A stretch of 64,000 bases of DNA from Minisyncoccota bacterium (GCA_036170235.1 JAVHOW010000016.1:5511-69510), one strand, 5' to 3'. Counted from the first letter of the stretch, positions 7,171-58,213 are shown. Numbers and translations: made by a program. Notes: a model not told the origin generated them from the letters alone.

Positions 7171-7351
7171 AGTAGTAAATCGGCGCGATGCGCGCTTGCA
7201 CATTAGAGAATAGAGTGTAGCAGAAATGATGAAGTTTGACAATCACTATTTCTATATGGTGATGTCATGAGTCATTATGTATTTTATTTCTATCTACAAG
7301 GATTTATTGTCTAAAAATGTTCCGCGCGCTATAGTAAACAAATCTAACTTT

Positions 7352-9604
7352 ATGCCTAAAACACCATTCACCCTCGCAACGCCATTCGAGCCTGCTGGCG
7401 ACCAGCCGAAGGCAATTTCCGCATTGACGGATGGTCTCGCTAAAGGTTTTGACCGCCAGACATTGCTTGGGGTGACTGGGTCCGGTAAAACCTTCACCGC
7501 TGCAAATGTCATAGCTCAATATGGCAAACCTACGCTCATAATTGCTCACAACAAAACATTGGCTGCCCAACTCGCGCAAGAGTATCGAGAATTTTTTCCA
7601 AATAACGCCGTGCATTATTTTGTTTCTTATTATGACTACTATCAGCCAGAAGCATATATTCCGTCGAGTGATACTTATATCGAAAAAGAGGCGATGATAA
7701 ATGAAGAGATCGAACGTCTGCGCCACGCTTCGACGCAAGCACTTTTGACGCGCAAGGATGTCATCATTGTGGCGTCAGTTTCCTGTATTTATGGTTTGGG
7801 CAGTCCAGAAGAATATGAAAAAGTTAATTTGAAATTGAAAGTCGGCATGGAACTTTCGCGCGCGGAACTTATTCGCAAATTGATTGACATCCATTTCGAG
7901 CGCACGACTGCTGATCTTACGTCTGGTCAATTTCGCGCTATTGGAAACACTGTGGAAATCATGCCAGTGAACGAGAAGACTATTTATCGGTTGGAATACG
8001 GAGGTGACACCTCCGGAGGTAGCACCTCGATTGCCACTATTACTGAACTGGATCCTGTTTCAAGATCGGTTCGTAATGGTAGCTTAGGGACTTCCTCGCC
8101 AGCATTACTTGAACCACGGACTATTTTCATTTTTCCAGCAAAGCATTTCATTTCTAGTGATGAACAAAGTGCGCGTGCTTACAAAACTATTCAAGCAGAA
8201 TTGACAGATCGACTCAAGGTTCTGGAGAAATCAGGAAAATTGTTGGAAGCAGAGCGTTTGAAGCGTCGGGTCAAATACGATCTTTCTATGATTAAAGAAA
8301 TTGGTTACACAAACGGTATCGAAAATTACTCTCGTCATTTTTCTGGAAAAATGCCAGGCGAGCCACCGGATTCTCTGCTTTCATATTTTCCATCGACTAC
8401 GCTCGGGACAGGTCCGAATGCCAAGAAAGTTCCTGATTTTCTGACTATTATTGATGAGTCTCACGTTACAATTCCACAATTGAATGGAATGTATGCTGGA
8501 GATTTTTCGCGTAAGGACACATTAGTCGAACACGGTTTCAGATTACCATCTGCAAAAGATAATAGGCCGTTAAAGTTTGCTGAATTTCTGGAGCGCGTTG
8601 GTCCGATAATTTATACTTCGGCAACGCCGGGAAAATATGAGGCAGAGACAAACAGCCAGGTTGTTGAGCAAGTCATCCGTCCGACGGGTCTCGTCGACCC
8701 GGTCGTGGAGATACGACCTATAAGGGAGTCGTCACATGTTCGTACGGAGCGACTTTCGGAGCGAGCGAAGGCGAGTGAGAAGGAGGTGTCGGCTGAGCAC
8801 AGCCGAACACCGTTCGCGGAGGGCGAACATGTGACGACTCCCTACATGGGTCAAATCTTTGACTTCATCGCCGAAGCTGAAAAAACTATTGCAAAAGGCG
8901 ACCGCGTGCTCGCTACCACATTAACCAAAAAAATGGCCGAAGACCTGTCCGAATTCCTTAAGGAAAAAAATATCAAAGCCTCCTATTTGCACAGTGACGT
9001 CAAGACTATCGAGCGCATAAATATTCTGACTGATTTTCGCAAAGGGAAGTACGATATTCTGGTTGGCGTTAACTTGCTTCGTGAAGGTCTGGATCTGCCA
9101 GAAGTTTCTCTCATAGGCATTCTCGACGCTGACAAAGAAGGTTTCCTCCGTTCCGAAACCGCGCTAATTCAAACTATCGGTCGCGCCGCTCGTAACGCCG
9201 CTGGTAAAGTGATTCTCTACGCCGACAATCTCACTGGTTCAATGGATCGCGCTATCAAGGAGACTAACCGTCGTCGCGCTATCCAGGTGGCATATAATAC
9301 CAAACATGGCATTACCCCGCAGACTATTATCAAAGCCATCCACGACATCACTGATCAGTTGCGCACCAAACATGACAAAGCCGTCAACGAGCTCGTCAAG
9401 ATTGATGAAGAACTGGCTCGCACCAATCCGAAGTTGTTGATGAAACAAAAGCAAGCGGCCATGGAGGAGGCGGTCAAGATGTTGGATTTCGAGACCGCGG
9501 CGTTGGTGAGGGATGAACTTATTGCGATTGAAGAGAAGTGGGGGAGGGAGAAAAAAGCGGTGGCGAAGAAGTTGAAGGAGGAGGGGAGGAAAACTAAAAT
9601 CTAG
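7352..9604 (+). CDS. uvrB: Excinuclease ABC subunit B, with two in-frame inserted palindromic elements.
   Basis: PAGDQP, Walker A GSGKT, the helicase motifs and a C-terminal UvrB/UvrC interaction coiled coil. Likely start is MPKTPF. Confidence 0.9.
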   Translation: MPKTPFTLATPFEPAGDQPKAISALTDGLAKGFDRQTLLGVTGSGKTFTAANVIAQYGKPTLIIAHNKTLAAQLAQEYREFFPNNAVHYFVSYYDYYQPEAYIPSSDTYIEKEAMINEEIERLRHASTQALLTRKDVIIVASVSCIYGLGSPEEYEKVNLKLKVGMELSRAELIRKLIDIHFERTTADLTSGQFRAIGNTVEIMPVNEKTIYRLEYGGDTSGGSTSIATITELDPVSRSVRNGSLGTSSPALLEPRTIFIFPAKHFISSDEQSARAYKTIQAELTDRLKVLEKSGKLLEAERLKRRVKYDLSMIKEIGYTNGIENYSRHFSGKMPGEPPDSLLSYFPSTTLGTGPNAKKVPDFLTIIDESHVTIPQLNGMYAGDFSRKDTLVEHGFRLPSAKDNRPLKFAEFLERVGPIIYTSATPGKYEAETNSQVVEQVIRPTGLVDPVVEIRPIRESSHVRTERLSERAKASEKEVSAEHSRTPFAEGEHVTTPYMGQIFDFIAEAEKTIAKGDRVLATTLTKKMAEDLSEFLKEKNIKASYLHSDVKTIERINILTDFRKGKYDILVGVNLLREGLDLPEVSLIGILDADKEGFLRSETALIQTIGRAARNAAGKVILYADNLTGSMDRAIKETNRRRAIQVAYNTKHGITPQTIIKAIHDITDQLRTKHDKAVNELVKIDEELARTNPKLLMKQKQAAMEEAVKMLDFETAALVRDELIAIEEKWGREKKAVAKKLKEEGRKTKI
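8000..8029 (+). repeat. Double mini-hairpin GGAGGTGACACCTCC GGAGGTAGCACCTCG, in-frame inside uvrB, encoding GGDTSGGSTS.
   Basis: Perfect 15-nt palindrome followed by a near-copy. It lies in a 17-aa region that is extra relative to E. coli UvrB, recalled from memory. Confidence 0.55.
8723..8843 (+). repeat. ~121-nt GC-rich palindromic element with 19-20-nt terminal inverted repeats, inserted in-frame in uvrB.
   Basis: TIRs gggagtcgtcacatgttcg / cgaacatgtgacgactccc. The core gactttcggagcgagcgaaggcgagtgagaaggagg... is ~85% identical to a copy in uvrA. It accounts for a ~40-aa insertion between the EVRP and RVLxTTLTK regions of UvrB. Confidence 0.75.
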
Positions 9605-14011: not shown

Positions 14012-16756
14012 ATGTCAGCTATGCGTAAACATAGTCCGGGAACTGGCGAAGAAAAGATCGTTGTGAAGGGCGCGCGGACGCACAACCTCAAGAATATTAC
14101 CGTCGAGATGCCGCGCAACACGATGATCGCCATTACAGGACTGTCTGGTTCTGGAAAATCTTCGTTGGCATTCGATACTATATTTGCCGAAGGGCAACGC
14201 AGGTACGTTGAATCTCTTTCCGCGTATGCACGTCAATTTTTGCACAAAATGCAGAAGCCTGATGTTGATGAGATTTCTGGGCTTTCGCCAGCTATTTCGA
14301 TTGATCAAAAATCACGCTCTAATAATCCACGTTCAACAGTCGCGACAATAACGGAAATTTATGACTATCTACGTATTCTTTTTGCGCGTGTTGGAAAACC
14401 ACATTGTCTGACTTGTGGACGCATCATTCATCGTATTTCTCAAGAAGAAATCTTAAATACTATTTTGCAGACAGTTACTACTCGCGCTACTCAAGCTAAA
14501 AAAGTTTATGGCGTGAATATCAGTGATGCCAAAATTCGTGTTTACGCGCCAGTCGTGGTTGGTCGTAAAGGTGAATACTATCAGATGCTTTATGATTTGC
14601 TTGGTAAAGGTTATGACCGTGTCAGAATTGATGGAAAAATTCAACGCTTGCGTGATCAGATTATTTTAGAGAAAAATAAAAAGCACGATATTGACGTGCT
14701 AGTTGATGAGATTTTCGTTTCTGAATTCAAAGATGCCAAGCAGTCTGGTAATGCGCGTGAGCGTCTGTCGGAGTCCATTGAACGAGCTGTGCATGAGGCG
14801 GAGGGACTGATAAGGATTGAGTATCCGTGGGCGACGGCGACTGGAGTGGGGGGAGGACATGCTCTCGAGACGACTTTCGGACCGAGCGAAGGCGAGGGAG
14901 AAGGAGGCGCCGGCCGAGCACGGACGGACGCCGTTCGTCGAGGGAGCAAGTCCTCCCCCCACTCTGAAGTTGCCAACGTCAACGAAACCCTAATGTCCGT
15001 AAAATTCATGTGTCCATACGACGGTTTTTCATATCCAGAAATTGAGCCACGATTATTTTCATTCAATTCTCCATATGGCGCTTGTGCCGCTTGCAACGGT
15101 CTTGGTACTGAAGGATTATTCGCCGAAACAGTTTGCAAGGTCTGTAACGGTGTTCGTCTGCGTGATGAAGCTTTGCACGTGAAGATTGATGGCAAAAATA
15201 TCGTTAATACCACCTCATTATCTATTGAAAAAGCCATTAAATATTTTAATGAAATAAAATTAACCGACGCTGAAAAAGAAATTTCCAAAGTTGTATTAAA
15301 GGAAATTCAAGCGCGCCTCTCGTTTATGGTAAATGTCGGTATTGAATATCTGACTCTAGACCGCCGTGCCAACACGCTTTCTGGTGGTGAAGCACAGCGC
15401 ATTCGTCTAGCTTCGCAATTGGGATCTGGACTTGTTGGCGCGCTCTATGTGCTCGATGAACCAACTATCGGTTTACATCAACATGACAATGATCGCTTGA
15501 TTCAGACACTTCTTCGTCTACGCGATCTCGGCAACACTATTATCGTTGTTGAACATGATGAAGATACGATGTTCGCTTCTGATTACATTATTGATATTGG
15601 TCCTGGCGCTGGCGTGCATGGTGGAGAAGTAGTTGTATCTGGATATTTGGATGATTTACTTATGGCAAAAAAGAATACCTCAGGTTCACTCACTCTCGCG
15701 TATTTGCGTGGTGAGGAAAAAATTGAGATACCAAAAACTCGTCGTGAACCAAAAGGTAAAATCATGGTTCGAGGTGGAAATGTATTCAATATTAAAAATA
15801 TGGATGTTGACATACCTTTGGGTTGTTTGAATGTTATCACCGGTGTTTCTGGTTCAGGAAAGTCATCATTGATGTATGAAATTTTGCATAGAAATTTAGC
15901 GGCTCGTTTCGAAATGCGCCATCGCAGTAATGAAACAATCAATTGCAAAGAATTCAAAGGCTCTGAATATGTTGGTCGCGTGATTTTGATAGACCAATCT
16001 CCGATCGGTCGGACGCCACGATCCAATCCCGCTACTTACACGGGAGCATGGACTCACGTTCGCGACCTGTTCGCCTCAGAACCAGAATCACGTGCCCGCG
16101 GTTGGGGAGCGGGCAGATTTTCATTCAATCGCCCCGGCGGTCGCTGTGAGGCATGCGAAGGTAATGGTGAGATTGCCGTGGAGATGCACTTTTTGCCAAC
16201 AGTTTATGTTCTTTGTGATGTTTGTAATGGCAAGCGTTTTACCAAAGAAACTCTCGAGATAAAATTTCGCAAGAAAAATATTCATGAAGTGCTGGAACTG
16301 ACGATTGAAGAGGCGATTGAATTTTTCAAAGATATTCCAGCGGTTGAAGATCGTCTGCAAAGTATGATGGATGTTGGTTTGGGTTATGTAAAATTGGGAC
16401 AATCTGCAACAACTTTATCTGGTGGTGAAGCGCAACGCGTGAAGATTTCCTCGGAGTTATATCGCGCGCATTTGCAGAAAACGATTTATTTGCTTGATGA
16501 GCCGACAGTTGGTCTTCACTATGAAGATGTAAAAAAATTGATTGATATTTTGCAAAAATTGGTGGATAAAGGGAATACGGTCGTGGTTATTGAACACAAC
16601 TTGGATCTCGTAAAAAATGCTGACTACGTTATCGATATTGGTCCAGATGGCGGTGAACGTGGTGGTAAAATCGTGGCGAAGGGGACTCCAGAGGATGTTG
16701 CCATGAGCAAGACGAGTTATACTGGAAAATATTTGAAGAAGATGTTGAGGAAGTAG
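14012..16756 (+). CDS. uvrA: Excinuclease ABC subunit A, with an in-frame inserted palindromic element.
   Basis: Two ABC ATPase modules, [14 protein letters not shown] and [10 protein letters not shown]. Zinc fingers CxxC. LSGGEAQR signature twice. Confidence 0.92.
14844..14964 (+). repeat. ~121-nt GC-rich palindromic element with 15-nt terminal inverted repeats, inserted in-frame in uvrA.
   Basis: TIRs gagtggggggaggac / gtcctccccccactc. The core gactttcggaccgagcgaaggcgagggagaaggagg... is homologous to the uvrB copy. It encodes the Gly/Glu/Arg-rich segment [42 protein letters not shown]. Confidence 0.75.
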
Positions 16757-23262: not shown

Positions 23263-23562
23263 ATGAAACTCCAAACACATCTCGAAAACCTACGCGCAAA
23301 ACCAGAACATATCCGCAAAAGGATAGCTTTTTGGTCATCATTCGGAATTACTGCAATTATCTTTGCATTTTGGCTGGGTTCATTTTCTATTACTGGAAGT
23401 ACGGCAAGTGGTGCCGTGGCTTCTGCGGTCTCAAAAGCTGGTAGTCCTGGAAGCTCGCTGATTGCAGGCGTCGGAAACTTTTTTGTTGATATAAAGGAGA
23501 TGCTTTTTGGTGCGAAGAAGATCAAATATAGTGAGGTTGTGGTGACGCCGGGGAGTAAATAG
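23263..23562 (+). CDS. Hypothetical small membrane protein.
   Basis: One TM helix. The stop is immediately followed by a REP palindrome. Confidence 0.35.
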   Translation: MKLQTHLENLRAKPEHIRKRIAFWSSFGITAIIFAFWLGSFSITGSTASGAVASAVSKAGSPGSSLIAGVGNFFVDIKEMLFGAKKIKYSEVVVTPGSK

Positions 23563-24121
23563 TCCAAGGTCCGACCTTGGATAGGATGTTATTTTGTGGT
23601 CTCTTTTCACCCAAGTAATCTTTGAAACTTGAGAACTCATAGACCTTCGAATATTCGACTGCTCTATCATAGTGCTCATATCTTACTTCTCTCAACATAT
23701 CTGGTTCTTCAATACCAAAAGGGTTTAAATGTATATATTCAATAATACGAGCTAAATATTGATCGGTATCAATAGTTTTTGCTTTATATTTTCCTTGAAA
23801 TATTGTGCCCGAGTGATTATATTTTTTATTGAAATACATTACATACGCGGTACAGAGTTTTCTAACAAATTGTTCAACTTGCTGATCAGTTTCGACCATA
23901 AGTCCCAAATGAAAATGATTTGGCATAAGACAATACGAGAATATATCCACGAGATTTTGTTGTCGGTCTATAGAAAAAATATCAGATTTATTCAATTTGA
24001 AAACTAGAGGCTTTGAATCATTCGCTATATACAACAAACAGACAAAGCGTTGATAATCGCTCTTATCATTGAATATAGGCGCTTTATGAGCACCGCGATT
24101 GTAGATATGGTAGTAAGGCAT
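23522..24121 (-). mobile_element. IS200/IS605-like Y1 (HUH) transposase of the REP-associated tyrosine transposase (RAYT) type, flanked by two REP-like palindromes.
   Basis: YHIYNRGAHKAPIF and LMPNHFHLGL give the HUH motif as HFH plus a catalytic Tyr region. REP copies lie at 23563 and 24126 in inverted arrangement around it. The likely start MPYY is just inside the upstream REP. The track ORF extends to 24178 with GTG. Confidence 0.7.
23563..23581. repeat. REP-like 19-bp perfect palindrome TCCAAGGTCCGACCTTGGA, copy 1, at the 3' side of the RAYT gene.
   Basis: Exact palindrome seen in the sequence. Confidence 0.9.
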
Positions 24122-24125
24122 TTGT

Positions 24126-24144
24126 TCCAAGGTCAGACCTTGGA
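24126..24144. repeat. REP-like palindrome TCCAAGGTCAGACCTTGGA, copy 2, at the 5' side of the RAYT gene.
   Basis: Exact palindrome with a variable centre base. Confidence 0.9.
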
Positions 24145-24153
24145 CAACATATT

Positions 24154-24208
24154 CTATCAAACCGGAATGAAGAAACACTGAAGAAACGATAAAGAAGTAA
24201 TGAAGAAA
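24154..24208. repeat. ~45-bp repeat tatcaaaccRgaatgaagaaacactgaagaaacgataaRgaagtaatgaaga, copy A.
   Basis: Near-identical to 28475..28525 and 44725..44765. It lies at the 5' end of the minus-strand RAYT unit. Confidence 0.7.
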
Positions 24209-35539: not shown

Positions 35540-36424
35540 CTATCTAACTGCTTTCAATCTAATAGTGAATGTAGCACCGGTACCAATGCCAGCTGAATCT
35601 ACGCTTATATTTCCTTTGTGTCTCCGCGTAATAGCTTGTGCCAAGTATAGTCCAACACCAAACCCTTCAGTGTCTACAGCTTGAGCATTTTGAGCGCGGA
35701 AGAATTTGGTAAATACATGAGGTAAATCTTTTTTGTCTATGCCAATGCCATGATCTGTTATTGATATTATTGCTTCATGTCTAATTTTTTGCACAGTCAC
35801 GTCTACATTTTGACCAGGCGGGGTATACGCTAACGCATTCCCCAGTAAAGTTTGCAAGACGAACTCCATGCGTTGCGGATCTATCTTCACTTGAATGTCA
35901 GTCGAAGGGCATTGCACGGAAAAGAAAATATTTTTTTCATGAAATGCATCTTTTAAGATATTACTGACTGTACGTACAAATTCACAAAGATTTACTTTTT
36001 CAAAAGCATATGCGGAAACCGAGTTGTTGTCAGAATCCGTGAGCTCAATGAGTGTATTGGTAAGTTTGATGAGCTTTTCATTTGATTGTTGTATGTCCTG
36101 GATGCTTTGGTGTTTGTAGGAATCTTGTTCAGATTTTAACAGTTCTTCCGATACCCACTTTACTTGAGTGAGTGGCGTGCGAAACTTGTGAGCAATGATG
36201 GTGATGAATTCGTATTTGAGAGTTTCATTTGTCCGAAGTTTCTTAACTATAGTCCAGATAATAATACTCAAGAACAAAAGTATTGAAATTACAAATAGTG
36301 TCGCGATGAAGCCATTTTGAATAGAAATTGAGAAGATAAGACCAAATAATGATTTTTGATTTTCCATGGTGATAAGATGACTTACTATAAGTATATCATA
36401 TGCCTGCTGAAGTGAGCGCGTCAT
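35540..36424 (-). CDS. Orphan membrane-anchored sensor histidine kinase, antisense within the ribosomal protein cluster.
   Basis: H-box HKFRTPLTQVKW, HATPase_c motifs (DHGIGI, GFGVGL), N-terminal TM. Confidence 0.8.
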   Translation of the reverse strand: MTRSLQQAYDILIVSHLITMENQKSLFGLIFSISIQNGFIATLFVISILLFLSIIIWTIVKKLRTNETLKYEFITIIAHKFRTPLTQVKWVSEELLKSEQDSYKHQSIQDIQQSNEKLIKLTNTLIELTDSDNNSVSAYAFEKVNLCEFVRTVSNILKDAFHEKNIFFSVQCPSTDIQVKIDPQRMEFVLQTLLGNALAYTPPGQNVDVTVQKIRHEAIISITDHGIGIDKKDLPHVFTKFFRAQNAQAVDTEGFGVGLYLAQAITRRHKGNISVDSAGIGTGATFTIRLKAVR

Positions 36425-36602
36425 ATATTGCGGTGCTAAGTATTCTAGCTATAACGAGGGAGTCGAAGAATTTTTATAATAGGAAAAGGAATTTGAGGAG
36501 GTAGGGTATTTGATTCTCCTTTTTCAATCGATATAGCTCATATTAAACTGTTACCGTAGATCATTCTGAACTTTTCTGGTTGCCGAATCGTTTTTCATCA
36601 AT

Positions 36603-36631
36603 TTGACTTCAAACCGCCGCTCTGTTAAGAT
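36603..36631 (+). promoter_or_regulatory. Sigma-70-like promoter TTGACT-17-TAAGAT for the rpsS and downstream operon segment, followed by a leader hairpin.
   Basis: TTGACT at 36603-36608, 17-nt spacer, TAAGAT at 36626-36631. Leader hairpin gatgcatgcgcgttcgcatc downstream. Confidence 0.45.
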
Positions 36632-39806: not shown

Positions 39807-40403
39807 TTGAATTTCAATATCATGTCATATAAAACAGTATCAGAATTAAATAAAGAATCTTACTCAACACTCAAGGAAAAGTTGGGACTTAAGAATCCGA
39901 TGCAAGCACCACGCCTGGTCAAAGTCGTGGTATCCAATGGTTTCGGTTCAGTAAAGGATAAGAAAAAGATTGAGCTCATCGCTGATCGTCTCGCCAAGAT
40001 CACTGGTCAGAAACCAGCTGTTCGTGCGACTAAGAAAGCTATCGCTACATTCAAGACTCGCCAAGGTGACGCTGTCGGCTATCAGATCACTCTTCGTGGT
40101 CCTCGCATGACAGAATTCCTCGATCGTCTCATCCACGTCGCTCTACCTCGCACCAAAGACTTCCGTGGTCTCGCTCGTACATCAGTTGACGCTATGGGAA
40201 ATTACACTATGGGTATAAAGGAGCACACTATTTTCCCCGAAACTTCCGATGAAGATTTGAAAGATGTCTTTGGTTTCGCTATTACGATTGTTACAACTTC
40301 CAGTGATAAAAAAGCGACGTTGGCGTTTCTAGAACATATTGGTATGCCATTGAAGAGGGAGCCCACCTCCGCTGAAGCTACGGAGGGCAAGGAGGTGAAG
40401 TAG
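39807..40403 (+). CDS. rplE: 50S ribosomal protein L5 with a C-terminal extension encoded by a palindromic repeat module.
   Basis: L5 core. Alternative start MSYKT at 39822. The C-terminus ...KREPTSAEATEGKEVK is extra. Confidence 0.9.
   Translation: MNFNIMSYKTVSELNKESYSTLKEKLGLKNPMQAPRLVKVVVSNGFGSVKDKKKIELIADRLAKITGQKPAVRATKKAIATFKTRQGDAVGYQITLRGPRMTEFLDRLIHVALPRTKDFRGLARTSVDAMGNYTMGIKEHTIFPETSDEDLKDVFGFAITIVTTSSDKKATLAFLEHIGMPLKREPTSAEATEGKEVK
40364..40397 (+). repeat. Hairpin repeat module cacctccgctgaagctacggagggcaaggaggtg, in-frame at the rplE 3' end.
   Basis: Nested inverted repeats cctccg/cggagg and cacctcc/ggaggtg. 28 nt are identical to a copy inside gyrB at 56609. Confidence 0.8.
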
Positions 40404-40454
40404 GTTGTCTTAAATAAGTGGAAAATAGCCTTACAAAATAAGGTTATTTTTGTA

Positions 40455-40483
40455 AAAACACCCGTTCGGAAGGGTGTTTTTTT
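40455..40483. terminator. Bidirectional terminator after rplE.
   Basis: aaaaacacccgttcggaagggtgttttttt. Confidence 0.65.
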
Positions 40484-40511
40484 CTTTACTTAACTGATAA
40501 TTTTCTAACTA

Positions 40512-41588
40512 TTAAATCCCACTCGTCGTAGTACTCATAACCTGCCCTGAAGTCACAGTATTCCCACTAGCATCCACGGACTGGACCTTGAAATAGTAAG
40601 CTGTACTTGTAGCCAATCCCATGACTGAAATGGAGTGGTTCAGTGTTAGTGCACTATTGGTGATGAATGAAGTCGTACTTGCATTCACATCCAAAGGATT
40701 TGTACTCGAGTAGAACACCTTTGAAGTTGCGAGCTCATCAGTTGTCCAAACAATAGTTGTGGTTGAAGCGCCTGGAGTTGCAGTTAGAGCACTAATAACT
40801 GGAGGTGTGACATCAGCTGGAACAATTACACTGCCAGTATGAGCAGAGAATGTCGATGAAGTGGTCACGTTGCCAGATGTATCAGTTGATTCAATGACAA
40901 GGTAATAAGTCGTATTTGGTGTAAGTCCTGACAACGTAAGCAAGTGAGTCTTGGTAGTACTTGCATTGGAAACATACGAAGTCGTGCTTGCATTCAACAC
41001 AACAGGAAGAATTGTTGAATAATAGACGCGATCGGTTGTATTTTCATTTGTTTTCCAACCGACTTTGATGGTTGAAGTTCCGAGAACAGTCACAACGTTA
41101 CTGATGACTGGAACTTTGGTATCAGCCGATGGCGAGGAATTATTGCCATGGAACTTCTTATTGATACCGAATGGTAACCAGCAATTTAAAACATTGGTGT
41201 CAGAAGTACCATTATTCTTTATCCAACCAGGTGCGACCAGATGACCGTATGCCTTGAAACATTTGCCGAATGCAGAGTTTTTATTTGAATTTGAAGACGA
41301 ATCTTTTTCTGATTTTGATTCAGATTCATGTGAATTTGACCTTGTAGAAGTTGAAATATGAGAATTTAAATTGTTGGACTTTTTATCATGCTCAACTTCA
41401 CTATCTATATGATTCGAATTGGAATTTGAAGTAGAAACTGTTACCGAACGCTCGACACGGTTTTTGCCGTGGTCATTATTATTTTCTTTTTCATTCTTAT
41501 TATTTTCTTTAGCAAAACTAACTAGGGGACTCATGACAAGAGCGAGTGCGAGTGTGCCAATGGCGAAAGAGGTAATGTAATTTTTCAT
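40512..41588 (-). CDS. Secreted protein with a signal peptide, a His/Ser/Asn-rich low-complexity region and two FN3-like domains.
   Basis: Signal peptide. Repeated ...TVTSSTFSAHTG / TTYYLVIESTDTSGN and AYYFKVQSVDASGN motifs. Confidence 0.6.
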   Translation of the reverse strand: MKNYITSFAIGTLALALVMSPLVSFAKENNKNEKENNNDHGKNRVERSVTVSTSNSNSNHIDSEVEHDKKSNNLNSHISTSTRSNSHESESKSEKDSSSNSNKNSAFGKCFKAYGHLVAPGWIKNNGTSDTNVLNCWLPFGINKKFHGNNSSPSADTKVPVISNVVTVLGTSTIKVGWKTNENTTDRVYYSTILPVVLNASTTSYVSNASTTKTHLLTLSGLTPNTTYYLVIESTDTSGNVTTSSTFSAHTGSVIVPADVTPPVISALTATPGASTTTIVWTTDELATSKVFYSSTNPLDVNASTTSFITNSALTLNHSISVMGLATSTAYYFKVQSVDASGNTVTSGQVMSTTTSGI

Positions 41589-41807
41589 AAAAATTGTTAT
41601 GTGTAATTAATTTATAATCTACTTATAGTACTTTGTAATATTTGTCAGCTTAATAAAAGCCAACAGATTATATAAACGGACTAGAAACATAAACCTTACA
41701 TCGACACAACTGCACATTTATTGTATATTCTATTAGCACTCAACCTATCAGGAATTGCTGAAATTCGCAGAAAACGTAAGAATAGCGCCATTCATTCGTT
41801 ACACATC

Positions 41808-42413
41808 ATGAATACCGATAATCATATAAACAAGCTCAGAAGCACCTTTACTGACATATACAACACAGAGGCAGATTCTTTGTTTCGTTTTTGTCTTATT
41901 CGAGTCAGCGATCGAGAACAAGCGCTTGATTTGGTTCAAGAAATATTCACTCGCTTTTGGCAGACAATGAATCAAGAAGGTCGGCACATAGACTATCCGC
42001 GAGCTTTTCTTTTCACAGTCGCACGGAATGCTATCATTGATTGGTATCGCAAAAAGAAAAGTATTTCTTTGGAAAGCATGGCTGATCCTGAAACAGATGA
42101 ACCGTATGAAGCAATTCAAGATTCAGATCTAATGGATAGTAAATTGGAAGGCGAGGGGCGATTCCTGATTTCTGCCATAAGTAAATTGAGTTCTGGTCAC
42201 CGCGACGCTATCTATCTCCGATTTGTTGAAGGATTGTCACCTCCAGAAATTGCCAAGATCTTGGGGATATCAACCAACGCAACATCAGTTAGAATTACCA
42301 GAGGAATTGAAGAATTACGGAAATTGACAGGATATGACATTGAGATCGATGGTGGAGATAATTTTTCTAAAGAAGGAGGTGCGGATACAGCAGATAAATT
42401 AGAGTCAAAATAA
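41808..42413 (+). CDS. ECF (sigma-70 family group 4) RNA polymerase sigma factor.
   Basis: Region 2 DLVQEIFTRFW and region 4 HTH ...EIAKILGISTNATSVRITRG. Likely start is MNTDN. The track ORF starts at 41721. Confidence 0.8.
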   Translation: MNTDNHINKLRSTFTDIYNTEADSLFRFCLIRVSDREQALDLVQEIFTRFWQTMNQEGRHIDYPRAFLFTVARNAIIDWYRKKKSISLESMADPETDEPYEAIQDSDLMDSKLEGEGRFLISAISKLSSGHRDAIYLRFVEGLSPPEIAKILGISTNATSVRITRGIEELRKLTGYDIEIDGGDNFSKEGGADTADKLESK

Positions 42414-42417
42414 AAAC

Positions 42418-43509
42418 ATGAAAGACACACGATTCAACAAAGCAATAAAAGATATAAAGAATATATCCATGACATCTGCGGAAAAGCGAATGGTCTTTGA
42501 ATGTGTGATGAAGACTACGCCAATTAAAAGTACTTGGACTGTGTATTCTTTTGGTAAGTGGATACAGACGCATCGCTCAATTTCAGCTTTAGTGTTTATT
42601 GTAATTGTTATTTCGGCGGGAAATTCTGCCGTATTAGCCTCACGTAACACACTTCCTGGTGACACGCTTTATCCGATCAAAGTTAATATGGTTGAACCGA
42701 TTCGCGTTGCCTTTGCTCCAACTCCAAGGATTAAGGCGGAGATTCAGACTGAATTGGTACAGAGTCGTTTGCAAGAAGCAGAAACCTTGGCGGCGCGAGG
42801 TCAGCTCAATGATGGAAAAGAGCAAAGTTTAAATCAGCGTATTGATCAACAAGTTTCCGATTTGACTGCAAATATTAATGAAGTAAAAAAAACGTCACCT
42901 GAAAAAGCTGATGATATTAGTACGACGTTAGAAGCAAGCATCAATGCTCACACACGAATACTCGATGTTATTGCCGTCAATCGTGGTGAATCTCATAGTA
43001 ATAGCAAAGAAAATGGCGCCATTAACGTAGATGGAGCCGTTACGTCTGCTATGGTGGCATCGTCATCAATGTCAGAATCGACACAAACTTCAAGAACTTC
43101 TTTGAAACTTAATAAAAAGTCAGAATCAAAAGATGAGTCAAAGAACAATAAAAAGTATTCAAAAAGAAAAGAATCGGTGGAATCATTAATCCAATCAACA
43201 ACCGCTGATGTTGCAGGTGCGACTACAACAGCTACATCTTCATTACTTCAGGAAACTATAGTTAATGATGCGCGTATCAACCTTGATCATGCCCAAGAGA
43301 AACTACAAGAAGCTCAAAATCATAATAGTAATGGTAATTCTAGTGAAGCCTATTCGGCACTGATTGATTCTGAACGCGCCACAAAAGAGGCGGCGTTGTT
43401 TATAAAGGCTACATCACGACTGGAGAAGGAGGTAAAAAATGAGGAGATAAATGCTTCTTCACATGGGAACAATAATGTCCAAGGTGGTCAATCGGGTAAA
43501 GTGGAATAA
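42418..43509 (+). CDS. Putative membrane anti-sigma factor (DUF5667-like) cotranscribed with the ECF sigma.
   Basis: Immediately downstream of sigma, with a 4-nt gap. Single TM helix and a coiled, low-complexity extracytoplasmic region. Confidence 0.5.
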   Translation: MKDTRFNKAIKDIKNISMTSAEKRMVFECVMKTTPIKSTWTVYSFGKWIQTHRSISALVFIVIVISAGNSAVLASRNTLPGDTLYPIKVNMVEPIRVAFAPTPRIKAEIQTELVQSRLQEAETLAARGQLNDGKEQSLNQRIDQQVSDLTANINEVKKTSPEKADDISTTLEASINAHTRILDVIAVNRGESHSNSKENGAINVDGAVTSAMVASSSMSESTQTSRTSLKLNKKSESKDESKNNKKYSKRKESVESLIQSTTADVAGATTTATSSLLQETIVNDARINLDHAQEKLQEAQNHNSNGNSSEAYSALIDSERATKEAALFIKATSRLEKEVKNEEINASSHGNNNVQGGQSGKVE

Positions 43510-43672
43510 GGCGGACTGACTAACCTCACATACATACTGCACTCATTAATCAAATGGGCGCAAAATGAAAATACACTCAAAATATCGAGGGATTAAGGGG
43601 TTTGTGGCGTAGATTGTTTTTGGGAACATTGAAATAAACCAACGAAAAAACCAATAAACGAAAGAGAAACTT

Positions 43673-44187
43673 ATGGCCCATGTTATCGAATGTAGATTTT
43701 GTGATGGTACATCATTAAACCATGACCACGATGAATGTGCTCAAGAGTTTGGTTTGAGCGTGGAGCGGAGAATTTTAGAACACACAACTAGATATCTTGA
43801 AACTCCTTTACCGCAAACGATTATTAACGAGCTCAAAAGTGATTGTTGGAAATGGTACCTGGAATATCTCGATCTTATATATTTCCACAAGTTAATTATT
43901 CCCATCTTATTCAAAATAGAACAGGATCACATTATGAAGATAGGAGATATAGAAGCCACATTGAACGCAAATCTGCTGATTTCGTTGTTTGTGATAAAAA
44001 GACATGTGTACCATGTTTAGTTATTGATATTGATGGAAGTGTACATAATAGATTAGATATACATGAAAAAGATGCAGAGATAAATCAAATACTTAATGCT
44101 ATTGGGTTACCAATATTACGTTTAACCAATGAAGATTCAAGGGATAGAGAACTTGTTAAAAACAAAGTCTTTGGAATGATTAAGTAG
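43673..44187 (+). pseudogene. Frameshifted DUF2726 (NERD/nuclease-related) gene with an N-terminal Cys/His cluster.
   Basis: Two overlapping ORFs, 43673..44020 and 43843..44187, in different frames. The second carries the DUF2726-like pattern SADFVVCDKKTCVPCLVIDIDGSVHNRLDIHEKDAEINQILNAIGLPILRL. Confidence 0.5.
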
Positions 44188-44304
44188 TCAACCAATAATG
44201 GGTAGTTATAAATTTGACTTTCGAAATATTTTTTGCTAATATAATTCAAGTTACTAGTCGCCAATAATTGGCAATTGAACCCGCCCACAAGGCGGGTTCC
44301 GACA

Positions 44305-44718
44305 TTACACCAAATCTTTCATGTACCTCCTTATTACCTGAAAATCTTCGTAAGAAATAGTGTCAATGTAGCGATCTAATCTTTTAGTGCTGACTAAGCG
44401 TAATTGATGGATCTTTGCCACACGAGTAATACCACCGCAAATAAAAGTGTAATGAATTCTGCTTTCTTTTGGCCACTTTTTTGTTGTGAGAGGAATAATC
44501 CATAAAGTCTCATCAGTAAATATACGAAATATAATCACTGGTCTGATAAAATTATCACCTTTACCATCCTCTTCACTACCGATATTGCAACCAAGAAAAC
44601 ACCACCAGATATCCCTTTCCTTGAATATGAGTCTTTCTTTTTTATCATGAACAATTTTTTTCTTTATGTTCCATGAATCAAAGTTCTTTATATGTTGTTT
44701 TGCTATTCTTGTATCCAT
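44305..44718 (-). CDS. PemK/MazF-family toxin (mRNA interferase-like).
   Basis: IRPVIIFRIFTDETLWIIPLTTKKW resembles the RPxlVls...vaPiTs core of MazF/PemK. No antitoxin is evident. Confidence 0.5.
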   Translation of the reverse strand: MDTRIAKQHIKNFDSWNIKKKIVHDKKERLIFKERDIWWCFLGCNIGSEEDGKGDNFIRPVIIFRIFTDETLWIIPLTTKKWPKESRIHYTFICGGITRVAKIHQLRLVSTKRLDRYIDTISYEDFQVIRRYMKDLV

Positions 44719-44724
44719 CTTCCA

Positions 44725-44765
44725 ACTCTATCAAACCAGAATGAAGAAACACTGAAGAAACGATA
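44725..44765. repeat. ~45-bp repeat, copy C, directly upstream of the PemK-like gene start.
   Basis: tatcaaaccagaatgaagaaacactgaagaaacgataagga. Confidence 0.7.
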
Positions 44766-45040
44766 AGGATGACCTTCTTTCAGCTTCGACTCGGATGTTG
44801 TGCCTGCGAGCAGTCACACATCCTCGCTTGCTGAAATAAAGAAACAGTGAAGATTTTCAAATTTGACTTCCTCACACCCATTTGTTAGTATATCCACACC
44901 TTCATAAACCAAGGTTTTTCATACAAAACAGTGATTGGAAGCACACCCTTAACGGGATAGCTAACCAGTCCTCATTTTTTTGAGAAAAATTGCAAGCAAG
45001 TCACTTGAAAGAGTGCGTCGCCAACCCAAAATATCACCTT

Positions 45041-45226
45041 ATGGCAAAAACATCAGTCATCGTACGATCCCAAAAGAAGCCGAAATTCAAGTCGCGCGTC
45101 GTTCGACGTTGTTTCCGATGTGGACGTAAGCGCGGATATATGAGAGATTTCGATCTCTGCCGTATTTGTTTCCGAGAATTCGCAAACGAAGGTGTGATTC
45201 CTGGCATCAAGAAGTCTTCATGGTAA
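45041..45226 (+). CDS. rpsZ: 30S ribosomal protein S14 type Z (zinc-binding).
   Basis: 61 aa, [16 protein letters not shown]...[20 protein letters not shown], with four Cys. Confidence 0.9.
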
Positions 45227-49384: not shown

Positions 49385-49502
49385 GCGAGGTTTACCTTCA
49401 TAATTTGGATTCCTCCCCTTGTCAGTTTTATAAGTATAGGCTATTTAAATAAAAAATCAAATTTGACTCCCACCCCCAATTCTGATAGTCTATATTCTAC
49501 CT

Positions 49503-54044: not shown

Positions 54045-54497
54045 ATGACTAATATGACTATTTCACCTATACAACCAATTCGAGGGGATTACGTTACAAA
54101 AGGAGAGTTCGGAGAATTCAAAGCTGAAATGCGCAATTTTCACTTCGGGTTCAATGATTTTAGAGAGGAGATGTATATTTTCAAAGATGATGTCTCAAAA
54201 CGCTTTGATGCCGTAGATGCACGCTTTGGTGCTGTAGATTCACACTTTGATGCTGTTGATGCACGCTTTGATGCTGTTGATTCACGGTTTGATGCTGTTG
54301 ATGCTCGATTTGATTCAATAGATGCTCGATTAGGTTCACATGATACACGTTTAGCTGGTATTGATAAACGGATCGATGTATTAACCAAGAGTCTGTTTGA
54401 ATTTCGTGAGGAAGTTCCACGATATATGAAAACGTTACAAGAAGGATTTCGTGAGGATCTTAGAATAGCGCTCGAAATACATAGCACTCAAAAATAA
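54045..54497 (+). CDS. Heptad-repeat protein with 8 tandem xFDAVDxR units, probably coiled-coil.
   Basis: RFDAVDARFGAVDSHFDAVDARFDAVDSRFDAVDARFDSIDARL is encoded by 21-bp tandem DNA repeats. Confidence 0.55.
   Translation: MTNMTISPIQPIRGDYVTKGEFGEFKAEMRNFHFGFNDFREEMYIFKDDVSKRFDAVDARFGAVDSHFDAVDARFDAVDSRFDAVDARFDSIDARLGSHDTRLAGIDKRIDVLTKSLFEFREEVPRYMKTLQEGFREDLRIALEIHSTQK
54205..54372 (+). repeat. Tandem 21-bp repeats (8 units, degenerate) inside the 54045 CDS.
   Basis: tttgatgccgtagatgcacgc / tttggtgctgtagattcacac / tttgatgctgttgatgcacgc ... Confidence 0.8.
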
Positions 54498-54697: not shown

Positions 54698-56869
54698 ATG
54701 GCAACCGAAAAAGAGACCAAAAAAAATAAGAAAAATCCTGAAAAAGGCACCGGTAAAGGTGGTTATGATTCCTCATCAATCACCGTACTAGAAGGTCTAG
54801 AACCAGTGCGCAAGCGTCCTGGAATGTATATTGGCACAACTGGACCAGATGGTCTTCACCACCTCATCACAGAAATTTTCGACAACTCTCGTGACGAGGC
54901 TATGGGTGGTTTTGCCAATGATATTGAGATCGTACTTTTGCCAAACAATCGTGTTCGCGTAGTTGATAATGGTCGCGGTATTCCAGTAGATGTACACAAG
55001 CAGACCAAAATTTCCGCATTGGAAATGGTTATGACAGTTCTTCATGCTGGAGGCAAATTTGGCGGTGAAGATAGTGGGTATAAAGGTGCTACAGGAGGTC
55101 TTCATGGTGTCGGTGCGTCGGTGGTCAATGCTTTGTCAGTGTACGCGCAGGTTTTGGTGCACAAGGACGGTGGTATTTATATGCAGGAATATTCGATCGG
55201 CAAACGCAAAGCCGCGGTGAAAAAGATTGGTTCAAGTAAACTTCATGGAACTATCGTGACTTTCCAACCAGATTCAGAAATTTTCAAAGAAGGTGTTGTT
55301 TTCGATTTCAATCGTGTAGTCAATCATATGCGCCAACAAGCGTATCTAGTTCGTGGACTTCGGATCAGTGTTATTGATGCGCGTGGTCAGGTTGCTGGTT
55401 TTGGTTCAGATAATGAACTATTTTATATTCGCGATACTGGTGTTGACGCGCCATCCTACACTTTCTTTTTCGAAGGAGGTTTGGTTTCATTGATCAAATT
55501 TACCAATCAACTCTACAAACCGATCCACAAAAATATTTTCTATGTTGAGAAAAAGGTAGAAGGTGTGGAGTCAGTCGAAGTTGCTTTGCAGTATTCCGAT
55601 GATGTTTCATCGCGTGTTATGGCTTTTGCGAACAATATTAGCAACCCAGAAGGAGGCACACACATAACTGGTTTCAAGACGTCACTCACTCGTACTTTGA
55701 ATACTTATGCAAAAAATAACAATTTGTCGAAAAATGGCGAAGATAGCTTCACTGGTGATGATGCTTTGGAAGGACTGACATCTGTTGTTTCAGTCAAACT
55801 TCGTGAAGTCCAGTTTGAAGGTCAAACCAAGGCCAAACTCGGCTCTATGGAGGCTCAGGGCGCCGTAGCGACTGTTTTTGGTGATGCGTTCGCAGCATTT
55901 TTAGAGGAAAATCCTGACGATGCGCGTGGTATCATTAACAAAGTTATTTTGGCTATGAAGGCCCGTAAGGCCGCCAAAGCCGCCAAAGATTCAGTTTTGC
56001 GCAAAGGTGCTTTGGAAGGTATGACTTTGCCTGGCAAGCTCGCTGATTGCCAGTCGAGTGATCCTGCGGAATCCGAAATCTTCATCGTAGAAGGAGACTC
56101 TGCTGGTGGTACTGCCAAACAAGGTCGTGATCGTCGCATCCAAGCTATTCTGCCACTTCGCGGAAAAATTTTGAACATTGAACGCGCGCGGTTAGATCGT
56201 ATGCTCGGTTCAGAACAGATCAAGAATCTGGTCTTGGCATTCGGTACAGCGATCGGTGATACATTCGATATTTCCAAACTTCGTTATCACAAAATTATTT
56301 TAGCAACAGATGCTGACGTTGACGGTGCGCATATTCGCACACTTATTTTGACGCTTTTGTATCGTTATTTCCGTCCACTCATCGATGGTGGCCACGTTTA
56401 CATTGCTCAACCACCCTTGTACAAGGTGAAAAAAGGCAAAGAAATTCTTTATTTCTATAGTGATGAAGAAAAGATCAGGGCGCTCGGCAAGGAGGCTGAA
56501 ACTATTGAACAAGCGGAAGCTGACCTTGATATGCAAGATGCAAATAATATCCAATCACGAGCCGAACTTCTGGAGCGTGCTGAAGCAGAATCGGACGCAG
56601 AATTGGCACCCTCCTCCGCTGAAGCTACGGAGGGCAAGGAAGGGAAGACACCAAAAATTTCAATCCAGCGCTATAAGGGTCTTGGTGAAATGAACCATTA
56701 TGAACTTTGGGAGACCACTATGGATCCAGCTCGTCGCATTCTTCGCCAAGTGACTGTTGATGATGCACAAGATGCGGATAAGGTGTTCGATATGCTGATG
56801 GGTGATGATGTTCCTGCTAGAAAATCATTTATTCAAAGCAATGCGAAGTTGGCGACGTTGGATATTTAG
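54698..56869 (+). CDS. gyrB: DNA gyrase subunit B, with a C-terminal-region insertion that includes a palindromic repeat module.
   Basis: GHKL ATPase (EIFDNSRDEAMGG, GLHGVGAS), Toprim (EGDSAGG), and C-terminal QRYKGLGEMN. Confidence 0.93.
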   Translation: MATEKETKKNKKNPEKGTGKGGYDSSSITVLEGLEPVRKRPGMYIGTTGPDGLHHLITEIFDNSRDEAMGGFANDIEIVLLPNNRVRVVDNGRGIPVDVHKQTKISALEMVMTVLHAGGKFGGEDSGYKGATGGLHGVGASVVNALSVYAQVLVHKDGGIYMQEYSIGKRKAAVKKIGSSKLHGTIVTFQPDSEIFKEGVVFDFNRVVNHMRQQAYLVRGLRISVIDARGQVAGFGSDNELFYIRDTGVDAPSYTFFFEGGLVSLIKFTNQLYKPIHKNIFYVEKKVEGVESVEVALQYSDDVSSRVMAFANNISNPEGGTHITGFKTSLTRTLNTYAKNNNLSKNGEDSFTGDDALEGLTSVVSVKLREVQFEGQTKAKLGSMEAQGAVATVFGDAFAAFLEENPDDARGIINKVILAMKARKAAKAAKDSVLRKGALEGMTLPGKLADCQSSDPAESEIFIVEGDSAGGTAKQGRDRRIQAILPLRGKILNIERARLDRMLGSEQIKNLVLAFGTAIGDTFDISKLRYHKIILATDADVDGAHIRTLILTLLYRYFRPLIDGGHVYIAQPPLYKVKKGKEILYFYSDEEKIRALGKEAETIEQAEADLDMQDANNIQSRAELLERAEAESDAELAPSSAEATEGKEGKTPKISIQRYKGLGEMNHYELWETTMDPARRILRQVTVDDAQDADKVFDMLMGDDVPARKSFIQSNAKLATLDI
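56607..56647 (+). repeat. Hairpin repeat module caccctcctccgctgaagctacggagggcaaggaaggg, in-frame in gyrB (encodes PSSAEATEGKEGK).
   Basis: A 28-nt stretch cctccgctgaagctacggagggcaagga is identical to the rplE copy. Confidence 0.8.
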
Positions 56870-57523: not shown

Positions 57524-58213
57524 TCACCACAACTTCGGACGGACGACTTTTATTTCTTCAAATAGAATAATCATGATAACAACTGCTCCCCAAATCCAAG
57601 AAAATGTTTTGAGCGTGTCCATGGGATTTGATTCGAGGATAGAAAGATTGAACGCGGTGTGTATTGCGATTGCTCCGCATAGTCCGACTATAATAGCAAT
57701 AATTTTTGTGAATTTACCGTGGTAAAAAACATATCCTAGCGTAAATCCAACACTTGCCGAACTGACGACGTGAAGAAGAGTCGCGCCCATAAAGCGCATA
57801 TTTCCAGTAACAATACTTCTGGCAATTTCTCCGCCAGAGAGCGGACCCATAATAAAAAGCGCATTTTCTAAAGCGGCGAAACCAAGAGCAGTAACAATGC
57901 AGTAAATCATCGCATCGATAGGTTCATCGTTTTCTTTTGAATGTAGAGCAATGACGGCAACAGCTATGAATTTGGATATTTCTTCAACTGCCGCCCAAAG
58001 AGTATAACGAATGGTTTCATCATTATATATGCTAGCGACATATTTTTCCGCGAACACAGCCGCGATAACTGCTGCCATGCCGCCTAGAAAACATGCAACA
58101 AGCAATGAGCGTGGTTCAGGATGCTGACGATCTTCGCGGAGCCAAAACCAGAGCCAAATAAAAGAGGGAAGTAGTCCAGATAATATTGCGTATGTAAGAG
58201 CGGTGGCTGACAT
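57524..58213 (-). CDS. PrsW-family intramembrane metalloprotease.
   Basis: Multi-TM protein with the EExxK motif (EEISKF) and FxxxH (FMGATLLH). Confidence 0.65.
   Translation of the reverse strand: MSATALTYAILSGLLPSFIWLWFWLREDRQHPEPRSLLVACFLGGMAAVIAAVFAEKYVASIYNDETIRYTLWAAVEEISKFIAVAVIALHSKENDEPIDAMIYCIVTALGFAALENALFIMGPLSGGEIARSIVTGNMRFMGATLLHVVSSASVGFTLGYVFYHGKFTKIIAIIVGLCGAIAIHTAFNLSILESNPMDTLKTFSWIWGAVVIMIILFEEIKVVRPKLW

Follow-up and report, generated by a model that had tools for sequence, protein, structure and literature searches.

The gap between rplE and rpsN in a Minisyncoccota ribosomal-protein cluster as a probable composite of layers of different age

Introduction

The S10-spc ribosomal-protein cluster is a standard marker for placing uncultured bacteria and is presumed to be syntenic. 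In a 64,000-nucleotide stretch of DNA from a Minisyncoccota bacterium (GCA_036170235.1, JAVHOW010000016.1:5511-69510; hereafter the window), 4637 bp separate rplE from the zinc-type rpsN, as seen from the open reading frame (ORF) listing and Pfam. The gap holds genes for a secreted protein with FN3-like domains, an extracytoplasmic function (ECF) sigma factor and a membrane protein, followed by a piece of a DUF2726 gene and a PemK/MazF-like gene; Pfam and NCBIfam agree with an earlier reading, made from the sequence alone, that had placed all five there. That sequence-only reading took the whole gap for one 4.6-kb mobile or defence island, inserted into the operon and now decaying. The locus raises the question of how such DNA came to stand inside a normally invariant cluster, and whether it came as one piece. 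Our answer is that the region is probably a composite of layers of different age, built at a pre-existing operon boundary, and that most of it is old lineage-specific synteny.

Results

The rplE-rpsN junction is a variable site throughout the lineage

The rplE protein of the window is 59-91% identical to those of 80 Patescibacteria loci from metagenome-assembled genomes (MAGs) labelled Taylorbacteria, Paceibacterota or Parcubacteria, and the organism is a Taylorbacteria-like Paceibacterium. Gap statistics cover the 62 relatives with both rplE and rpsN, and counts out of 63 loci include the window itself. The two genes are a median of 1503 bp apart, the extremes being 26 and 9484 bp; the shortest gap, 26 bp, is found in L075 and L077, which bears out the premise that the two genes are normally contiguous. 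These two loci support a contiguous ancestral state, so that the intervening DNA in the window is accessory. Singletons make up 127 of the 181 gap ORFs, and 102 of the larger ORFs match 91 different Pfam families; the cargo includes PIF1 helicase (7 loci), ABC and MFS transporters, thioredoxin and reverse transcriptase, and integrases and transposases are absent from the 25 most frequent gap families listed. The wide range of gap sizes and the mostly singleton, unrelated cargo indicate that the junction is a variable site of the whole lineage and not the seat of a one-off insertion.

In this respect the site resembles the hotspots known from bacterial chromosomes, where the same pair of core genes flanks highly variable and mostly unrelated cargo across genomes. 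It differs from them in lying inside the normally invariant S10-spc cluster, in carrying largely ordinary genes instead of prophages or integrative elements, and in being tied to a lineage-specific split of the operon.

On the left of the gap, the terminator noted earlier near 40455 is indeed present, as a hairpin called by a terminator scan, and terminator-like hairpins were found separately on the 3' side of rplE in 38 of the 63 loci scanned, the terminator of the window resting on the former scan and not on this count. On the right, a promoter of the form TTGAC-N14-17-TGnTAnnnT lies at most 260 nt from the rpsN ATG in 56 of 63 loci, whatever the size of the gap; it is kept even where the total gap is 147-250 bp and is lacking in both 26-bp gaps. 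In a blastn comparison of positions 43510-45040 with the relatives, the matching part was 44859-44990 only. The right edge of the variable DNA is at about 44856, and 44857-45040 is the conserved promoter and leader of rpsN. A repeat near 44725 had been proposed as this boundary; the repeat exists, at about 44729 and with two more copies in the window, and is promoter-proximal to the PemK-like gene. Since the rpsN promoter and a leader RNA described below (50 of 62 relatives) are kept in spite of the variable gap, the junction is an operon boundary that tolerates gene gain.

We propose that the ribosomal-protein cluster was divided in this lineage into separate transcription units, of which one would be closed by rplE with its terminator and the next opened by rpsN, which has a promoter of its own and a structured leader. 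Between the units would lie neutral ground, filled with different genes in different genomes. A large Patescibacteria clade has the cluster broken at fixed points, where up to 9.5 kb of variable genes gather; such breaks bear on how marker genes are extracted and contigs binned, and they provide these organisms with a natural neutral site.

The cluster is segmented at several points, as seen from a promoter of the same type (AATTTGACT…TGTTAGTAT) that precedes rpsS (36600-36627), rpsN and rpsB (49460-49487) in the window, and from a histidine kinase gene (35540..36424, minus strand) between rplB and rpsS that is kept there in about 30 relatives. After secY the cluster runs on with rpsB-tsf in place of adk/map/infA. 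The extra C-terminal tail of rplE consists of a 39-nt repeat (40362-40400) with a hairpin CCTCCG…CGGAGG, and a 92% identical copy lies at 56609-56647, in the 3' part of gyrB.

The oldest layer is probably an FN3, ECF sigma and DUF5667 module

The genes for the FN3 protein, the sigma factor and the DUF5667 membrane protein stand at the same site and in the same orientation in eight relatives (L001, L007, L008, L011, L015, L017, L041 and L048), and FN3 orthologues are present at the site in 9 relatives. Sigma and DUF5667 occur without FN3 in L002 and L049, sigma occurs alone in L050, and a truncated DUF5667-like ORF, detected by clustering only, remains in L055. On a neighbour-joining tree of nine concatenated ribosomal proteins, the module loci (12 relatives) are spread through a broad clade, reaching down to about 73% rplE identity, and are interspersed with the module-less L004 (209 bp), L019 (other genes), L010 and L014. 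The identity of the sigma factors drops with ribosomal-protein distance, from 55-74% in the near clade to 54-58% in the far clade. The presence of the module at this site in 12 relatives, together with a divergence that tracks the ribosomal-protein tree, points to an ancient acquisition with repeated loss, and these three genes are, from the sequence comparison, best read as old synteny with losses. The synteny check that had been suggested for the proposed insertion thus returned a shared gene order for FN3, sigma and DUF5667, which for these three of the five genes is the outcome that the earlier reading had named as refuting it.

A mobile cassette that inserted repeatedly and independently at the rplE/rpsN boundary of different lineages would also produce a patchy distribution, with near neighbours that have and lack the module, and partial versions such as those of L002, L049, L050 and L055. 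It would not be expected to give sigma factors whose identity falls with ribosomal-protein distance; besides, the promoter architecture and orientation are identical everywhere, no mobility gene accompanies the module, and loss by deletion is the simpler route in reduced genomes. We regard the cassette as improbable and retain old synteny with losses.

The sigma factor matches NCBIfam TIGR02937 (86.3 bits, cutoff 42.9) and has Pfam regions Sigma70_r2 (residues 47-113) and r4_2 (150-199), with no Pfam match for r3 or r1. Translation most likely starts at ATG 41808, as the L094 orthologue is called at 201 aa, and not at TTG 41721; from this ATG the protein has the two regions and the length of roughly 170-220 aa that define ECF factors. 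It is not assignable to a defined ECF group, all subfamily and equivalog models of NCBIfam scoring far below cutoff. In all 13 loci a motif G[TA]AAGAAW-N13-CGTC[TA]TA stands just before the likely sigma start, its end 0-4 nt away, which is the position of an ECF autoregulatory promoter. Of the 9 loci with the FN3 gene, 8 have a second copy on the opposite strand, about 80 nt before that gene; the chance expectation is about 0.04 matches per locus. In the window the two copies have CGTT in place of the CGTC of nearly all relatives. As the promoter ends 3 nt before the ATG, the sigma mRNA is predicted to be leaderless or nearly so. The sole other match in the window, at 20580 on the minus strand, falls across the beginning of a small membrane ORF and appears to be a chance match.

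The DUF5667 gene begins 4 nt after the sigma stop, in an order kept in 10 orthologous loci, and DUF5667 directly follows an ECF sigma in 2 unrelated genomic contexts too, with overlapping stop and start, which supports the pairing independently. Its gene order is that of an anti-sigma gene, adjacent to sigma and co-transcribed with it. The N-terminus carries a conserved motif, MKDTRFNKAI..ISMT..EK, and a literature search for DUF5667 found no paper in the library searched. Of the sigma/anti-sigma pair proposed earlier, a sigma factor with a downstream membrane partner holds, as a plausible signalling pair, and the anti-sigma identity is less firm, as weighed below. The domain searches that had been suggested placed DUF5667 in the membrane protein and DUF2726 only from 43843 onwards.

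In the circuit that these features suggest, the DUF5667 membrane protein would hold the sigma factor inactive until an envelope signal released it. The freed sigma would transcribe from two divergent ECF promoters, one serving its own leaderless operon as positive feedback and the other the secreted FN3-domain surface protein. Sigma, partner and a single secreted target appear to make up a closed circuit, which would be one of few that can be read from genomes so reduced. That DUF5667 proteins are partners of ECF sigma factors, with a defined promoter motif and target gene, is a testable annotation.

The nearest known system is SigW-RsiW of B. subtilis, whose site-1 protease is PrsW. Both have a two-domain sigma with regions 2 and 4, a partner gene immediately downstream that encodes a single-pass membrane protein, an operon with its own ECF promoter and a CGT -10 element, and a small local regulon that includes an envelope or secreted protein. 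The window module differs in the outer domain of its partner, which is DUF5667, in the cytoplasmic domain and -35 element taken up below, in a sigma mRNA predicted to be leaderless, and in its location inside a ribosomal-protein cluster. A PrsW-family gene is present in this genome where the sequence-only reading had seen it, at 57524..58213; a link between it and the sigma module is pure conjecture.

A slot with conserved flanks has had its cargo exchanged

The closest relative, contig L094, was found by a search with the DUF5667 protein (its protein is 81% identical) and is 87-95% identical to the window in nucleotides. Its order is FN3, sigma, DUF5667, a 149-aa ORF with no Pfam match, the PemK-like gene on the minus strand, and rpsN onward. 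Upstream of the differing ORF both carry a conserved flank (Table 1), and downstream positions 44209-44769, with the PemK-like gene and its surroundings, are 95% identical to L094. The DNA in between is unrelated (window 43669-44208, L094 3595-4116). Conserved flanks around unrelated cargo indicate that the cargo was exchanged after the window and L094 diverged. In L008 and L002 hardly any DNA lies between the DUF5667 gene and the rpsN promoter, so that the slot and the PemK-like gene are later additions. We propose that this second layer is a short slot whose cargo would be swapped between close relatives while its flanks persist.

The cargo in the window is probably non-functional and consists of the start of an orphan ORF (ORF A in Table 1) joined to a DUF2726 remnant. 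ORF A matches neither Pfam nor PADLOC nor the DUF2726 family hidden Markov model (HMM). Full-length DUF2726 relatives (n = 90) are 150-190 aa long, with an N-terminal transmembrane (TM) helix and a conserved FLFDTxSEFxFF segment. The remnant matches the HMM of these relatives from position 61 of 165 only, and the tblastn match starts abruptly at 43843, just past an in-frame stop. No trace of the missing N-terminal part is found in any upstream frame, so that the domain is incomplete and the gene is best described as a 5'-truncated remnant behind a foreign ORF start. The earlier reading was right that this gene is degraded; the simple frameshift that it invoked fails, as fusing the frames adds no Pfam or family-HMM score. 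The DUF2726 region is identical in two independent Logan assemblies. Signs of decay in the region are limited to this remnant.

The third layer is a solitary MazF-like gene

A profile of the PemK-like family matches B. subtilis MazF (4mdx) with E 1e-5, and residues R58 and T77 align to Arg25 and Thr48, which we take to be the catalytic residues of that enzyme; R58-P59 and T77 are invariant in the family. The family profile was required for this match, since phmmer with the single protein against the PDB gave chance matches only. The AlphaFold model (predicted local distance difference test, pLDDT, 82.8) has MazF structures as its top Foldseek matches, with probability 1.0 and target-normalised template-modelling scores of about 0.75-0.8, and shows an extra N-terminal helix at residues 12-23. 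Judged from this model, the protein combines the MazF/Kid fold with the catalytic residues of a MazEF toxin. The subfamily, helix included, counts 409 representatives at 50% identity with E<1e-30 and 1976 with E<1e-10.

An adjacent, co-transcribed antitoxin gene, as in MazEF, is not found. Beyond the window's own locus (two Logan contigs), no partner gene is conserved in six metagenomic or MAG contexts and L094, where the neighbours vary (smpB, groEL/secG, recG, a uvrD-like gene and others). Homologues in the Campylobacter CJIE4 prophage and on an H. suis plasmid have no partner gene beside them either, and behind the one on a Nitratiruptor plasmid lies a 62-aa ORF that is not conserved. In 6 of 8 homologue loci the ATG is preceded, at 6 nt, by an extended -10 element TTTG[AC]TAGNNT, a spacing that makes the mRNA probably leaderless and monocistronic. 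Upstream of the window gene, where an antitoxin search had been proposed, small ORFs do occur, all of them inside a 66-nt insertion missing from L094. As the homologues are solitary in the contexts read, the missing antitoxin is a trait of the family and not the mark of decay for which it had been taken.

The protein shares with the MazF/PemK/EndoA toxins the fold and the motifs GSE..G..RP and P-x-T-T that align to the two MazF residues above. It departs from them in having no MazE-like or other conserved neighbour, in its monocistronic and probably leaderless transcript, and in the extra conserved N-terminal helix (F-D-x-W-N-x-K-K) that goes with a large subfamily of its own. Candidates for what restrains the RNase are this helix, expression control and low intrinsic toxicity. 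The third layer would thus be a monocistronic, leaderless gene for a MazF-fold RNase without a partner gene, acquired before this genome and its nearest relative separated. A large MazF subfamily that departs from the rule that a toxin needs its antitoxin is a testable annotation.

We also weighed whether the protein belongs, as the toxin, to an ordinary toxin-antitoxin pair with an antitoxin that escaped notice, as a tiny ORF, a phased-repeat RNA of the type III kind or the convergent slot gene. The retained catalytic Arg and Thr, the 11-bp phased repeats upstream and the Nitratiruptor 62-aa ORF would fit such a pair. In L094, however, the distance from the gene to the rpsN promoter is only about 50 nt, too short to hold an ORF, and the upstream ORFs of the window belong to the insertion that L094 lacks; the neighbours differ in each context, the same repeat precedes a histidine kinase gene and a Y1-transposase gene, and units of 11 nt are far below the length of known type III antitoxin repeats. 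A missed antitoxin is rather unlikely on this evidence, and we keep to a natively solitary gene.

The repeat in question (D3, 52 nt) has three copies in the window, at 24155-24206, 28473-28524 and 44729-44780. Read on the minus strand, it is a series of phased 11-bp GTTTCTTCA units that ends in a TTTGATAG -10 element, and it precedes three unrelated minus-strand genes, Y1-transposase/RAYT-like (RAYT, repetitive extragenic palindromic (REP)-associated tyrosine transposase; at 24155), histidine kinase (28473) and PemK-like (44729). L094 has an extra copy without a downstream gene (9436-9487), so that copy number differs between close relatives, and a related sequence precedes the PemK homologue of L083 (3963-3990). 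D3 behaves as a portable promoter-like element, promoter-proximal to the PemK-like gene, and not as an island boundary. Its reading as a type III antitoxin-like array or as an OmpR-type box found no support; the genes behind it are unrelated, and the L094 copy has none. The extra L094 copy belongs to an insertion of about 190 nt (9296-9486) ahead of the rpsB promoter, with a GC-rich part that appears structured by eye and in which ARAGORN found no tRNA. The 66-nt hairpin insertion is genome-specific; its predicted fold over 44767-44840 has -23.8 kcal/mol, and a search for further copies gave none.

A conserved RNA leader precedes rpsN

Positions 44859-44990 comprise the promoter, a small hairpin (ACCUU…AAGGU) and a near-invariant leader motif. 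Across the relatives this motif reads GAUUGG-A-AGC-(hairpin)-GCU-AA-CCAAUC, followed after 3-4 nt by a U-run, and a covariance model recovered exactly the 50 sites counted above and none other in 1.3 Mb, both strands. All 50 folds have a P1/P1b/P2 architecture in common, with an inner hairpin of 9-47 nt and variable sequence. The covariation score is 0.160 compared with 0.080 in shuffles, and none of 500 shuffles was as high; paired cells amount to 93.6%, against 88.3% when shuffled, in an alignment that is itself model-based. Both-sided changes occur in all three modelled inner-stem pairs. These results give the conserved structure of the 5' untranslated region (5'UTR), with compensatory changes, that characterises ribosomal-protein leaders. 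The near-invariant outer helices fit, as far as the sequence goes, a surface recognised by a protein.

Rfam 15 has no match for the leader in the window or in seven relatives, and Rfam scans of the window, the gap region, the leader and these relatives gave nothing relevant. A survey of 20 ribosomal leaders from 2020 lists none for rpsN (PMC7247131), and our literature searches found none. The leader, not catalogued in Rfam, is a testable annotation.

In E. coli, S8 represses the spc operon through a site that overlaps the rplE start, an RNA confined to Gammaproteobacteria (PMC3616713). There as here a structured RNA lies in the 5'UTR, and the rpsN unit has the S8 gene as its second gene. The S8 site holds A595·(A596-U644) and G597-C643 (PMC4176348), and the leader has a partial likeness to it, judged by eye, in an asymmetric internal loop with an unpaired A beside A-U and G-C pairs. 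It has no clear equivalent of U641/A642, which makes S8 the leading candidate ligand only. It also differs in its place before rpsN and in its U-run, which suggests attenuation rather than translational repression.

Eight outgroup loci (L067, L068, L070, L071, L073, L074, L076 and L080) are without the GAUUGG leader and have the same type of promoter, followed immediately by a short hairpin and U-run (GAGCUU…AAGCUC-UAUUUU) about 30 nt before rpsN, which may be a simpler or ancestral attenuator.

A bolder reading joins these observations: the leader would be a new attenuator that senses a ribosomal protein, most likely S8; its origin would have split the spc operon in Paceibacteria; the resulting gap between terminator and promoter would have become a landing pad for new genes throughout the lineage; and the MazF-like family might carry its own cis inhibitor in the N-terminal helix, or else act as a regulated housekeeping RNase and not as an addiction toxin. 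We offer this combination tentatively and would put it at somewhat under an even chance.

A probable composite rather than a single island

A single mobile or defence island that landed in the spc operon and is now decaying, with an orphan toxin and a broken nuclease, would account for the accessory content and for the lower GC at 43.7-44.7 kb (31-36%, against 42-46% in the ribosomal genes). The truncated DUF2726, the MazF-like relatives on plasmids and prophages of Campylobacterota, and the mere 200-350 bp or so at this site in the close relatives L004, L010, L014 and L072 could be brought forward for it as well. None of the six ORFs of the region, however, encodes an integrase, recombinase or transposase; no tRNA lies nearby and no att-like repeat flanks the region. 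PADLOC gave no convincing match, the one marginal hit being the DUF2726 remnant (E 0.0039), and NCBIfam matched the sigma factor and contributed nothing further. A direct repeat TGAAATAAA on both sides of 43643-44832 could suggest a target duplication; its match of 12/14 over 14 nt is at chance level, and this reading was rejected. Three of the five genes hold this site in 12 relatives, and the parts differ in distribution and age, the PemK-like gene being common to L094 and the slot cargo not, so that they do not behave as one block; the toxin family is natively solitary. We therefore consider a single island very improbable, and favour the composite.

That the contig is a chimera, with unrelated DNA joined inside the ribosomal cluster during assembly, can hardly be credited. 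The Logan contig L081, identical over 43538-44856, does go into unrelated GC-rich sequence (L081 nt 1-109) exactly where the rpsN promoter starts, and its divergence at 44857 reflects either a chimeric assembly or structural variation within the population. Against an artefact in the window stand the independent assembly L082, which spans PemK to rpsN with 100% identity, the contigs L094, L095 and L096, which come from other samples and assemblers and have the same order from FN3 through rpsB, and the same layout in dozens of relatives.

Several points weigh against the composite reading or its parts. The patchy distribution of the module demands several independent losses. The -35 element of its promoters is AAGAA and not the canonical AAC of ECF promoters, and the promoters throughout are predicted from sequence motifs. 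No known anti-sigma domain (ASD, zf-HC2 and others) is recognised in the N-terminus of the DUF5667 protein, either by Pfam or by comparison of its profile with the PDB, which leaves gene order and topology as the basis of the anti-sigma role. The low GC fits a foreign origin of the second and third layers and is silent on their route of arrival. Finally, since the outer helix of the leader is almost invariant, the covariation support comes mainly from the inner hairpin.

Table 1. Features between rplE and rpsN, in window coordinates
Feature	Position	Strand	Evidence or remark
rplE (L5)	39807..40403	+	final gene of the upstream ribosomal-protein transcription unit; Pfam Ribosomal_L5 and L5_C
Terminator hairpin between convergent rplE and FN3 genes	40454..40481	.	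10-bp stem, then T-run
Secreted protein: signal peptide, Ser/Asn-rich linker, two FN3/Pur_ac_phosph_N-like domains	40512..41588	-	Pfam PF16656 E 2e-8, weaker FN3 matches; signal-like sequence read from the ORF listing
Predicted ECF-type promoter facing FN3 gene, GTAAGGTT-N13-CGTTTATA, ~80 nt before FN3 ATG	41671..41699	-	motif conserved
Predicted sigma-70-type promoter of sigma operon, TCGACA-N17-TATATT with TG extension	41701..41729	+	best promoter-scan match, 10/12; conserved in relatives
Predicted autoregulatory ECF-type promoter, GTAAGAAT-N13-CGTTACA, ending 3 nt before sigma ATG	41776..41804	+	motif conserved
ECF (group 4) sigma factor, 201 aa	41808..42413	+	Pfam Sigma70_r2, r4_2, r4; open frame extends up to TTG 41721
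Single-pass membrane protein: cytoplasmic N-terminus, TM helix, extracytoplasmic DUF5667; putative anti-sigma	42418..43509	+	Pfam DUF5667 E 5e-11
Conserved 5' flank of slot, probably promoter and 5'UTR	43597..43668	+	72 nt, 89% identical to L094 3519-3590
ORF A	43673..44020	+	first ~55 codons Cys/His-rich, no relatives detected; remainder out of frame through DUF2726 DNA
5'-truncated DUF2726 remnant (Vsr/DUF559-like nuclease fold), possible ATG 43852	43843..44187	+	Pfam DUF2726 E 2e-19, profile positions 23-123
GC-rich 9-bp hairpin between convergent DUF2726 remnant and PemK-like gene	44277..44299	.	read from sequence; kept in L094; no T-run, not called by terminator scan
MazF/PemK-fold endoribonuclease-like protein, 137 aa, extra N-terminal helix	44305..44718	-	Pfam PemK_toxin 38 bits, cutoff 23
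Predicted promoter cassette of PemK-like gene: extended -10 TTTGATAGAGT 6 nt before ATG, 11-bp phased GTTTCTTCA units (repeat D3)	44719..44769	-	repeat copies
66-nt hairpin insertion, genome-specific	44770..44835	.	absent from L094, which reads straight through
Predicted rpsN operon promoter, TTGACT-N17-TAGTAT with TG extension	44863..44891	+	promoter scan
rpsN leader motif, GAUUGG-A-AGC-(variable hairpin)-GCU-AA-CCAGUC, then CUCA and U7	44933..44981	+	conserved in relatives
rpsN (zinc-type S14, 61 aa)	45041..45226	+	Pfam Ribosomal_S14; opens unit rpsN-rpsH-rplF-rplR-rpsE-rplO-secY

Other repeats in the window

A REP-like palindrome, GTCCAAGGTCCGACCTTGGA, has six copies in the window (23562, 24125, 24699, 29312, 34015 and 53633), two of which flank the IS200-like Y1 transposase gene at 23522..24178 on the minus strand, an arrangement that we take to be typical of RAYTs. 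A 74-nt GC-rich repeat occurs at 8750-8823 and 14871-14944 (85% identical), inside the ORFs 7277..9604 and 14012..16756, in a genome that is otherwise about 42% GC; the second copy sits inside a 30-nt inverted repeat (14844-14873 / 14935-14964), and the repeat is possibly a structured insertion element that keeps the reading frame. A 42-nt terminator hairpin occurs in two identical copies of opposite orientation, at 20302-20343 and 60614-60655, 40 kb apart. Finally, the ORF at 54045..54497 contains at least seven 21-nt tandem repeats (54179-54367) that give a heptad-like coiled coil, with weak matches to DUF16 and DUF7310.

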